Source: Eledone cirrhosa (lineage: Eukaryota). Taken from it: DNA of 64,000 bases. The notes beneath the pieces were generated by a model. That model had not been told where the DNA came from, made no database searches, and was given only the letters and a program-made list of their open reading frames with translations. The position numbers were made by a program, and so were the translations under genes. This document shows positions 32,371-34,206 of the stretch, one piece after another (within the stretch, counting starts at the first letter, position 1; each line of letters begins with the position of its first letter). The stretch is taken from the NCBI GenBank assembly GCA_964016885.1, contig OZ024742.1:124806001-124870000 (forward strand). Direction: 5' to 3'.

Positions 32371-32826
32371 AGAAAAAAAGAGAAGCAGTGTTGCGACGAA
32401 TGGAATTTATTGGACATATTACAATCGTTTCTCTGGCGACCAGCTCGAGGCACGATCGATGTGATGATCGAACCTGACTCTGAAAATCGCAAGGTCCTCA
32501 GATACGTCTTGATTCTACGAAGCAGATTTCCCTAATGTTCTAAGCCGACAGGCGAAGGATATCGATGTAAAAGGACATTAGGAAACTGCTCCATAGAATC
32601 AATACGCTTTTGTGGCCCTTGCGATTTTCAGAGTCAGGTTCGATCATCACCTCGATCGTGCCTCTAGCTTCTCGCCAGAGAAACGATTGTAATATGTCCA
32701 ATAAATTCCATTCGTCGCAACACTGATTCTCTTTTTTTCTGTGATATCATACTCTGCTCTGTGAGAGCATCGAGTGTCCAAACGGCCTACCGCATACGGA
32801 CGCTTTTAGCATCCAACACCAATTAT
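32371..32826. repeat. Fold-back HHR element A (arms 32371-32541 / 32572-32740)
   Basis: Inverted arms; minus-strand HHR 32415-32506 cgtat-CTGAGGA-long stem II-GAAA-cgattg-TA-atatg; same family at 39298-39584. Confidence 0.85.
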
Positions 32827-32960
32827 AAATATATATATATATATATATATATATATATATGCAGATGGTATATTTAATTTGTTGGGATTCCAACAAGCTT
32901 AAAAGTTTATAACTGATATAAAGCACTCAAAAGAAAACTGGAGTGAATATTCAATATATT

Positions 32961-33237
32961 AATAAATGGAAACTATATTTATAAAACGATAATTATTTTA
33001 TTATATATATTTCAAGGGCAACCAAGGCATTCTTGGTGTGCTTTCATCAGATAAAATACAAGATTTGTTTTATAAATATTGACATAACCGTCAAGGTTGT
33101 TTTTCCACGGTTATGTCAATATTTATAAAACAAATCTTGTATTTTGTCTGATGAAAGCGCACCAAGAATGCCTCTGTTGCCCTTGAAATATATATAATAA
33201 CATAATTATGGTTTTATAAATATAGTTTTCATTTATT
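32961..33237. repeat. Fold-back HHR element B (arms 32961-33091 / 33107-33237), HHR in each arm
   Basis: Minus 32995-33057: attttat-CTGATGA-aagcacacc..gccctt-GAAA-tatata-TA-ataaaat; plus copy 33141-33203. Confidence 0.88.
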
Positions 33238-33258
33238 ATTATATTTTATATATATATA

Positions 33259-33453
33259 TAGTTATGTAATAAACAATATAAGGCAATTATTCCATTTACC
33301 AGTGGTTTCTTAAAAGCAACAATTTGCTTTCAATCCTCAGAATGAAAAAATCCTGGTCCCTTTTTTCTTTCTGAGGATTGAAAGCAATTTTTTGGCTTTT
33401 AAGAAACCACTGGTAAATGGAATAATTGCCTTATGTTTTTTATTACATAACTA
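33259..33453. repeat. Fold-back HHR element C (arms 33259-33350 / 33361-33453), HHR in each arm
   Basis: tttcatt-CTGAGGA-ttgaaagc..gcttttaa-GAAA-ccactgg-TA-aatggaa on minus (33290-33347) and, with a slightly altered stem I, plus (33364-33422). Confidence 0.88.
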
Positions 33454-33614
33454 AAAAGCTCTGTTACCTACATAGAGCACTCTTTTTTCCTGGACTTTTC
33501 CGACGGAATTACTTCATTTATATATATATATATATATATATATATATATATATATATATATATATGTATATATATATATATATATATATATATATATATA
33601 TATATATATATATA

Positions 33615-34206
33615 TAAGTTAAAAATGTACATCCATATATGTATACTGAAATACTAGTATGCATATGAATACACACACGTATACATATGTAGATGTACCA
33701 AGTCTTTCACTGGTTACTTTACTGTGAGTATCCAGCTATTCTGTATGTAAACACACAGACAAACCGGTTTTTAGAGTCATACTGGTTTTTGAGGAAACAC
33801 CTTTCCTCTATTCTCCAGAAAGCCGTTGAACCGGTACGTACTCACACTCTATGCAAATTGGTCTGCCCACTACTAATTTTCATAGAAAAAGCATATAACG
33901 ATATGTGCTTTTACGATTCTCCAGAAAGGCCGGTAGATAGGTAAATATTGCTGATGAGTTGTAACAACAACGAAACTAGTTCAATATTCCTTGTCTGGCT
34001 TTCTGGAGAATAGAGGAAAGGTGTTTCCTCAAAAACCAGTATGACTCTAAAAACCGGTTTGTCTGTGTGTTTACATACAGAATAGCTGGATACTCACAGT
34101 AAAGTAACCAGTGAAAGACTTGGTACATCTACATATGTATACGTGTGTGTATTCATATGTATACTAGTATTTCAGTATACATATATGGATGTACATTTTT
34201 AACTTA
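33615..34206. repeat. Fold-back HHR element D (210-bp near-identical arms 33615-33824 / 33997-34206)
   Basis: Arms differ at about one position by eye; the spacer holds a canonical HHR. Confidence 0.9.
33944..33988 (+). ncRNA. Canonical minimal type-I hammerhead ribozyme
   Basis: aatattg-CTGATGA-gttgt aaca acaac-GAAA-ctag-TT-caatatt; palindromic stem III ACTAGT; stem I extendable (ccagaaag/ctttctgg). Confidence 0.88.

Follow-up and report, generated by a model that had tools for sequence, protein, structure and literature searches.

Hammerhead-bearing fold-back insertions in Eledone cirrhosa: apparent 3' ends of Hydra-type Penelope-like elements and a gene-less retrozyme sharing their insertion signature

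Hammerhead ribozymes in Penelope-like elements (PLEs) were reportedly described in 2014. Among these retrotransposons, the Hydra clade is characterized in the accessible text of PMC8557442 (Craig et al. 2021) by a C-terminal GIY-YIG, DKT instead of DKG, CxCx5C and CxH motifs, an N-terminal RWK, the absence of the CCHH motif and a length that is generally <3 kb, and the supplement of that paper includes Hydra-1_Obim, with a (TA)n preference. PLE insertions are typically 5'-truncated, with an inverted copy next to them and a tail at only one end (PMC8557442, PMC3846280); the origin of the inverted structures is called open in the accessible text of PMC8557442. PLEs have also been proposed as mobilizing partners of metazoan retrozymes (PMC7229834; bioRxiv 10.64898/2026.07.22.740005), and in the parts of these sources available to us PLE mobilization of animal retrozymes is argued so far from co-occurrence and likeness to pLTRs. 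In vitro, PAc (Poseidon, Anolis) cleaves both strands of an AT-rich DNA and extends them, starting at two internal RNA sites by which the tail is defined; hammerhead cleavage is not required, as far as the accessible text of PMC11167929 goes.

The locus described here lies in a window of 64,000 nucleotides (the whole stretch of DNA that was analysed) of the 3.0-Gb Eledone cirrhosa genome; the window is rich in PLE pieces and TA tracts. It contains four consecutive fold-back cassettes, A to D. We consider it probable (about 0.85) that A-C are PLE 3' ends, that D is a gene-less retrozyme and that all four were likely inserted successively into (TA)n by PLE reverse transcriptase (RT)/GIY-YIG proteins. 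The first-pass annotation had called the cassettes the best candidate in the window for an undescribed system, a suggestion that does not survive comparison with the accessible literature, in which the architecture (PMC8557442, PMC3846280) and the partnership of retrozymes with PLEs (PMC7229834, bioRxiv 10.64898/2026.07.22.740005) already appear. Its link to PLEs, its TA targeting and its view of inversion as a routine insertion product were borne out.

Four fold-back cassettes and their hammerhead motifs

Self-alignment of the window matched the inverted arms where they had been placed: A at 32364-32528/32583-32747 (165 nt, 90%), B at 32947-33091/33107-33251 (145 nt, 93%), C as a 199-nt self-hit at 33259-33453 (89%) and D at 33615-33824/33997-34206 (210 nt, one mismatch). 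Comparison of A, B, C and D by blastn gave no similarity at E<0.05, in line with their description as unrelated. We defined a hammerhead motif as CUGANGA, GAAA, a short palindromic stem III, UH and stem I; tight limits on stem II recovered three of the six motifs and relaxed limits recovered all of them. The six motifs between 32364 and 34281 compare with none in each of 500 dinucleotide shuffles, and, as first proposed, every one is oriented outward from the fold centre. The four inverted repeats and the six motifs are genuine. In an Rfam search the D motif was found as Hammerhead_HH9 (38.6 bits, E 3.1e-6, under the gathering score of 52), and the A-C motifs had no match. MFE folding gave a clear hammerhead-like fold only for D (z -3.99, with the motif within a long stem); values for A-C ranged from z -1.74 to +0.83. 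Rfam miRNA matches in the stretch were dismissed as products of simple repeats and hairpins.

Beyond the arms, every cassette has one tail, on one side, that runs into (TA)n, with lengths of 64-95 nt (A 79, B 95, C 64, D ~70). These tails had been missed in the first pass, which stopped at the arms; D, tail counted, ends near 34280 and not at 34206. There are two fixed outer ends, S1 and, 64-95 nt further 3', S2. Downstream of a (TA)n target tract (32147-32363), cassette A begins with a tail-less arm (32364-32534, minus strand), an inverted 3' piece of the putative Hydra-type PLE family A with its outer end at S1 and a hammerhead motif with a 63-nt stem II region (GAAACGAUUGUA, 32412-32509, minus strand). 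The tail-bearing arm follows (32540-32823, plus strand), its tail (32748-32823) ending at S2; in this copy the CUGAGGA core of the right arm is lost, and other A copies have the core in both arms. In B, assigned to PLE family B, the tail-bearing arm comes first (32862-33091, minus strand; tail 32862-32946; hammerhead 32994-33058, minus strand) and meets the tail-less arm (33086-33251, plus strand; hammerhead 33140-33204, plus strand) at an inverted microhomology of 6 nt that the UTR itself contains. C, assigned to PLE family C, consists of a tail-less arm (33258-33366, minus strand; hammerhead 33289-33348, minus strand) and a tail-bearing arm (33361-33518, plus strand; hammerhead 33363-33423, plus strand; tail 33454-33518). 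Past a second (TA)n target tract (33519-33614), D comprises a tail-less inverted arm (33615-33824, minus strand; monomer positions 180-389) that ends at S1 and a near-full 466-nt putative retrozyme unit (33823-34280, plus strand; positions 6-466) with a hairpin tail (34207-34280) that ends at S2. The type I hammerhead of D (33944-33988, plus strand; 7-bp stem I, 5-bp stem II, palindromic ACUAGU stem III) sits in an apparent spacer that is part of the tail-bearing arm. Ribozymes in both arms are seen here in B and C, as first described. Each cassette is a single insertion: an inverted tail-less 3' piece, a direct piece, a tail and (TA)n.

Library or assembly artefacts would suit the almost identical D arms, and no single contig was found to span the stretch; we nevertheless give this explanation next to no weight. 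The arms of A-C differ by 7-11%, a point already made at first pass (D has one mismatch), the inversions end at S1/S2 without ever taking in flanking DNA, only one side has a tail, dozens of loci show the same layout, and a contig of another organism holds the C arm in both orientations.

The cassettes belong to a chain of six, in the order E, A, B, C, D and F. A chain of this length is long, though chains also occur outside this window: at 8 of 67 D loci elsewhere another of these families lies within 200 nt. Neighbour E (31946-32146, plus strand) is the 3' end of a fifth unrelated high-copy family and ends in (TA)n. Over 31896-32146 no hammerhead was seen in E. Its tail of 38 nt is optional, and inverted copies of E occur at other loci; in the window, a 49-nt hairpin is found just upstream of it. 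Neighbour F (34314-38597, plus strand) is a broken PLE, Hydra-type by its motifs (RWR, DKT, YRDD, CxCx5C, YIG, CxH), with a long 3' UTR, a degenerate hammerhead core of the CCGAAG type and a 3' end that is unrelated to D; a second broken copy at 21589-23903, with the same UTR and core features, is 80% alike over 2.4 kb.

The rest of the window holds similar material. Another broken Hydra-like ORF (331-2756) is followed by a 477-nt fold-back (85%) at 2946-3422 that overlaps a weak tRNA match (3242-3313, Rfam E 0.024), at which ARAGORN found no tRNA. Further fold-backs lie at 7514-7790 (arranged like a pLTR, with a direct repeat that follows 570 nt downstream), 8210-8499, 42810-42947 and 43815-43990, and hammerhead motifs of other families at 23990-24090 and 38810-38885 (both minus strand). 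A second fold-back copy of family A, with a tail on one side (S2+S1), occupies a TA tract at 39283-39596. A member of a different PLE clade (YVDD-type RT, C-terminal GIY-YIG) at 16665-17872 is 5'-truncated and inverted and has a longer ORF in another locus (L114:3252-6191). A 13-kb satellite with a 20-nt unit and a strong AT skew spans 48922-62129, and there are inverted blocks near 63207-64000.

Cassettes A to C and Hydra-type Penelope-like families

Families A, B, C and D are all high-copy. A genome search returned 1635 (A), 2262 (B), 1502 (C) and 786 (D) first-look candidates, which are not copy numbers; the best 39-40 of each were scored, and the loci analysed are the best BLAST matches. 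A, B and C are not ORF-less families, because the same 3' ends are collinear with RT and GIY-YIG ORFs elsewhere in the genome. Family A has at least 1.4 kb of shared upstream sequence in two loci, and of the 12 long A loci examined, 11 have ORF, UTR and A end in collinear order (including L157-L164, L169 and L170); the exception, L111, has no ORF attached, and L168 holds a short separate A copy. In A copies an RT-GIY-YIG ORF is followed by a UTR of ~2.3 kb and the A end, and one locus (L162; ~4.9 kb from pLTR to tail) has the textbook layout of an inverted pLTR followed by pLTR-ORF-pLTR, both pLTRs with a tail. Two B loci (L112 and L113) consist of an inverted UTR copy with a tail, then ORF, UTR and tail-less end, and a C locus (L165, identical to L102) of inverted C arm, ORF, UTR, arm and tail, with L115 as a second ORF-linked case.

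The encoded proteins carry the motifs expected of the Hydra clade. The DKT position reads PSDKTGN in A, LSDKTKN in C and KSNKTNN in B; the CxCx5C linker CNCRVGEEC in A, CNCRIKSNC in B and CSCRKPDEC in C; and the C-terminal CxH CRH, CKH and CPH, respectively. YRDD and Y(I/V)G motifs are present in the proteins of all three. An N-terminal RMRWRAFH occurs in three of five A copies scanned, and the fetched B and C copies are without the N-terminus. The Pfam GIY-YIG match is weak (E 0.002 for C, 0.23 for A), and a PDB profile search with the ORF proteins returned no matches. Almost all of the 425 protein relatives of the ORFs are without a name; the protein-atlas neighbours of a related ORF (L167) are RT-like clusters. 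By eye, the RT piece of C closely resembles the Hydra-1_Obim protein as printed in the accessible supplement of PMC8557442.

On motifs and this by-eye comparison with the supplement, we assign A, B and C as 5'-truncated 3' ends of three Hydra-type PLE families, each with the known inverted copy, and regard them as ordinary insertions of what appear to be new Hydra-type families. With the Hydra clade as described in the accessible text, A-C have in common GIY-YIG, DKT, CxCx5C and CxH; like its members they target (TA)n, are 5'-truncated, carry a hammerhead close to the 3' end and have an inverted copy and a single tail. They differ in that A has RWR where RWK is described (PMC8557442), in that A and B exceed the <3 kb described, their own 3' UTRs being ~1.6-2.3 kb and the published size a tendency, in tails of 64-95 nt against the 30-40 nt reported (PMC8557442), and in long stem II regions (63 nt in A), unlike the description of the clade. 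The label 'ORF-less' given at first pass is correct locally and for D and wrong for families A-C; likewise, its reading of the cassettes as non-autonomous ribozyme elements applies to D only. Attachment to a PLE ORF elsewhere, which that annotation itself had named as evidence against its reading, was found for A-C and at none of the 68 D loci.

D as a gene-less tandem hammerhead repeat

Copies of D are mostly 98-100% identical and form head-to-tail arrays with one fixed junction, which is held by 57 of the 68 D/D2 insertions. The sister family D2 (469-nt unit, 88% to D) builds arrays of up to ~15 units, and family H (422-nt unit, 68-69% to D in three blocks) also forms tandem arrays, one region of which extends over ~37 kb (G000:C12:20397213-20434901; L142, L251-L275) and shows inverted arms. 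The longest stop-free stretch of D is 60 aa, and tblastn gave no match of PLE pieces. Inspection of the flanks showed that none of the 68 D loci runs upstream into shared non-unit sequence; the 251 fetched sequences (1.08 Mb) contain neither a D parent nor a pLTR homologue. The D hammerhead covaries across related families: 8 of 13 pairs change on both sides and 93.7% of cells are paired, compared with 24-50% when slid, in a set of 11 sequences; these represent only ~4 families, and the number of independent events is accordingly small. Read runs of two other organisms also contain D-like sequence. Because D consists of tandem hammerhead units without an ORF, with no parent PLE in 68 loci, it qualifies as a non-LTR retrozyme by the sequence definition in the accessible text of PMC7229834 and of bioRxiv 10.64898/2026.07.22.740005.

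A PLE beside a D2 array in L168 has its own 3' end and is not the parent of D. Nor is element E, whose likeness to the D tail by eye had no BLAST match; the PLE at 34314 is not attached to D and has an unrelated 3' end. In L168 (4561-5964), a D2 array starts just past S1 and ends at S1, so that TA tracts enclose exactly three permuted units. L030 and L177 contain a further retrozyme family, a tandem hammerhead repeat of 310 nt.

With metazoan non-LTR retrozymes, as described in the accessible text of PMC7229834 and by Li et al., D has in common head-to-tail units that are a few hundred nt long, lack an ORF and carry a single type I hammerhead, and a range from dispersed monomers to long arrays. 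D insertions differ from these descriptions in that their two outer ends are fixed, a tail is present on one side, arms are inverted and the flanks are TA. In the openly readable literature, preprint supplements aside, we found neither S1+S2 pairing nor inverted arms for retrozymes; the word 'inverted' is absent from the accessible text of PMC7229834 and occurs once, in a reference title, in that of the preprint (10.64898/2026.07.22.740005), from which 'tail' is absent. Chlamys MRC1, as presented in the accessible text of PMC8557442, is like D a non-autonomous PLE partner with multicopy head-to-tail insertions; unlike D, such Chlamys elements have no canonical hammerhead, and their 3' ends generally match those of an autonomous family.

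Alternatively, D could be part of a PLE, its pLTR or its 3' end, amplified locally as satellite DNA, with ORF-bearing copies of that PLE outside the sample. At most 40 of 786-965 candidates were scored per search, long arrays have higher-order patterns that suggest later unequal exchange, and Xenopus retrozymes resemble pLTRs according to the accessible part of bioRxiv 10.64898/2026.07.22.740005. We judge this improbable: the 68 loci share no upstream non-unit sequence and keep a fixed unit junction, near-identical copies with S1/S2 ends are spread over many contigs, the ORF-less tandem relatives (D1, D2 at 88%, H at 68-69%) have a long history of their own, and 1.08 Mb of fetched loci contain no weak match to parts of D outside the D/D2/H families. 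Long D2 arrays in L201, L202 and L206 have alternating or higher-order variant patterns; such arrays, the observations suggest, grew after insertion, perhaps by unequal exchange.

Outer ends, arm nesting and the route of insertion

Among the 68 D/D2 insertions, 48 are two-armed, 46 of which have both ends at a site, and 44 of these 46 pair S1 with S2 (p 1.5e-11 vs 0.5 expected); these counts exclude duplicate loci of the same place and L177 (two nested subfamilies), score the complex L145 as single-armed, and include L151 and L212 with one end at neither site. Single-armed copies end at S1 (11) or S2 (9). Pairing was also seen in 9/10 A, 18/18 B and 13/13 C insertions, the B and C counts being inflated by queries that contained the tail and junction. 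The exceptions are two D insertions with S1+S1 and one A pair with S2+S2. D 3' ends run into (TA)n in 106 of 114 cases. Most D arms (97/117) cross the cleavage site and only one of 117 ends <=5 nt from it; therefore, the cleaved linear monomer is not the template. That D was inserted by PLE enzymes is likely, on the strength of the shared S1/S2 insertion signature; the fetched loci contain no autonomous D partner.

We favour, as fairly probable, a two-priming route in which each DNA end primes once and the products are joined head to head. A PLE protein would cut both strands of (TA)n, and a separate cDNA would be primed by each DNA end within the RNA, at S1 for one end and at S2 for the other. 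The two cDNAs would stop early and then be joined head to head, often via a few bases of microhomology; D junctions overlap by 1-10 nt in 29 of 48 cases. Head-to-head joining of S1- and S2-primed cDNAs would yield outward ribozymes and a tail on one side only. For D, the template, read in trans, may be a circle or else a multimer that was left uncleaved, with the hammerhead acting in the making of template RNA rather than in the setting of insertion ends. Homogeneous D arrays, in which insertion-specific variants run through all units and both arms, fit circle and uncleaved-multimer templates alike; two separate insertions, L030 and L145, have one variant of the tail arm in common and, in the other arm, a different variant in the second unit, a unit-specific pattern that fits a linear multimer source. 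Each insertion would leave fresh (TA)n on both sides, and unrelated families would therefore pile up. In L1 twin priming, the second target strand primes a second cDNA, which gives a 5' inversion with a microhomology join; here, by comparison, the two arms are copies of one region, and each starts at a fixed site. PAc shares with A-D the two RT start sites that define the tail, the AT-rich target and the use of both strands; it belongs to a different PLE clade, and PMC11167929 found no strand difference in start-site use and, in its accessible text, does not report strict S1+S2 pairing per insertion.

The inverted arm could instead arise by snap-back or self-priming of one cDNA (or from an antisense template), with an endonuclease resolving the product at S1 and removing one tail. 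Self-priming was proposed in PMC3846280 and endonuclease-mediated resolution in PMC8557442 (accessible text of both), one tail per insertion is likewise predicted, and in 7 of the 14 B insertions compared the junction falls on a native inverted repeat of 6 nt. Snap-back, which the first-pass annotation had taken as a routine outcome, is disfavoured: if it proceeds from a tail-first cDNA, the tail arm must contain the other arm, which is true in 24 of 44 D cases and false in 22 of 40 A-C cases, in which the tail-less arm reaches further 5' (A 3/9, B 13/18, C 6/13), although central palindrome deletions could mimic such non-nested arms. In the other 20 of the 44 D cases the tail arm lacks the full other arm, and in 10 neither contains the other. 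In L112, L113 and L163 the tail is on the short arm and the long ORF-bearing arm is tail-less. We regard snap-back with resolution as unlikely.

Arm variants bear on when the palindromes formed. The arms of one insertion are closer to each other than to those of other insertions in B (distance 0.033 vs 0.058) and C (0.028 vs 0.057) and barely so in A (0.044 vs 0.050), a signal that later gene conversion inside the palindrome could also produce. Between insertions, same-type and opposite-type arms are equally distant (B 0.058/0.058, C 0.057/0.058, A 0.050/0.049), also among B insertions with the same junction (0.056/0.056), and the A, B and C arm comparisons revealed no arm-type-specific variants across loci. 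The shared variants within insertions and the lack of arm-type variants therefore indicate that the palindromes were made at insertion and were not mobile units. Four non-autonomous fold-back mini-elements that move as palindromic units would account for high-copy, often two-armed families, the recurrent B junction and the non-autonomous D; we consider them very improbable, given that A-C attach to ORFs, that fold points vary among insertions with no fixed one, and that a B copy (L082) has the junction in mirror arrangement.

The two-priming route is the one favoured by the S1+S2 pairing, the non-nested arms and the shared haplotypes, which point to one source RNA. We tentatively suggest that the D lineage (466-, 469- and 422-nt units) may be old and self-standing, without a surviving pLTR parent and parasitic on Hydra PLE proteins, that one RNP may prime both broken DNA ends on one circular RNA at two fixed sites, and that the near-strict S1+S2 pairing could directly record in the genome how inverted insertions and one-sided tails arise in all PLEs. 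The parts of the locus are of known kinds, with no new system, and D would be a retrozyme of a known class. The PLE insertion signature itself, on a gene-less retrozyme, provides structural support for the published hypothesis that PLEs mobilize retrozymes, and the young 466-nt D RNA would be a small, ready substrate for an in vitro test of the insertion route.
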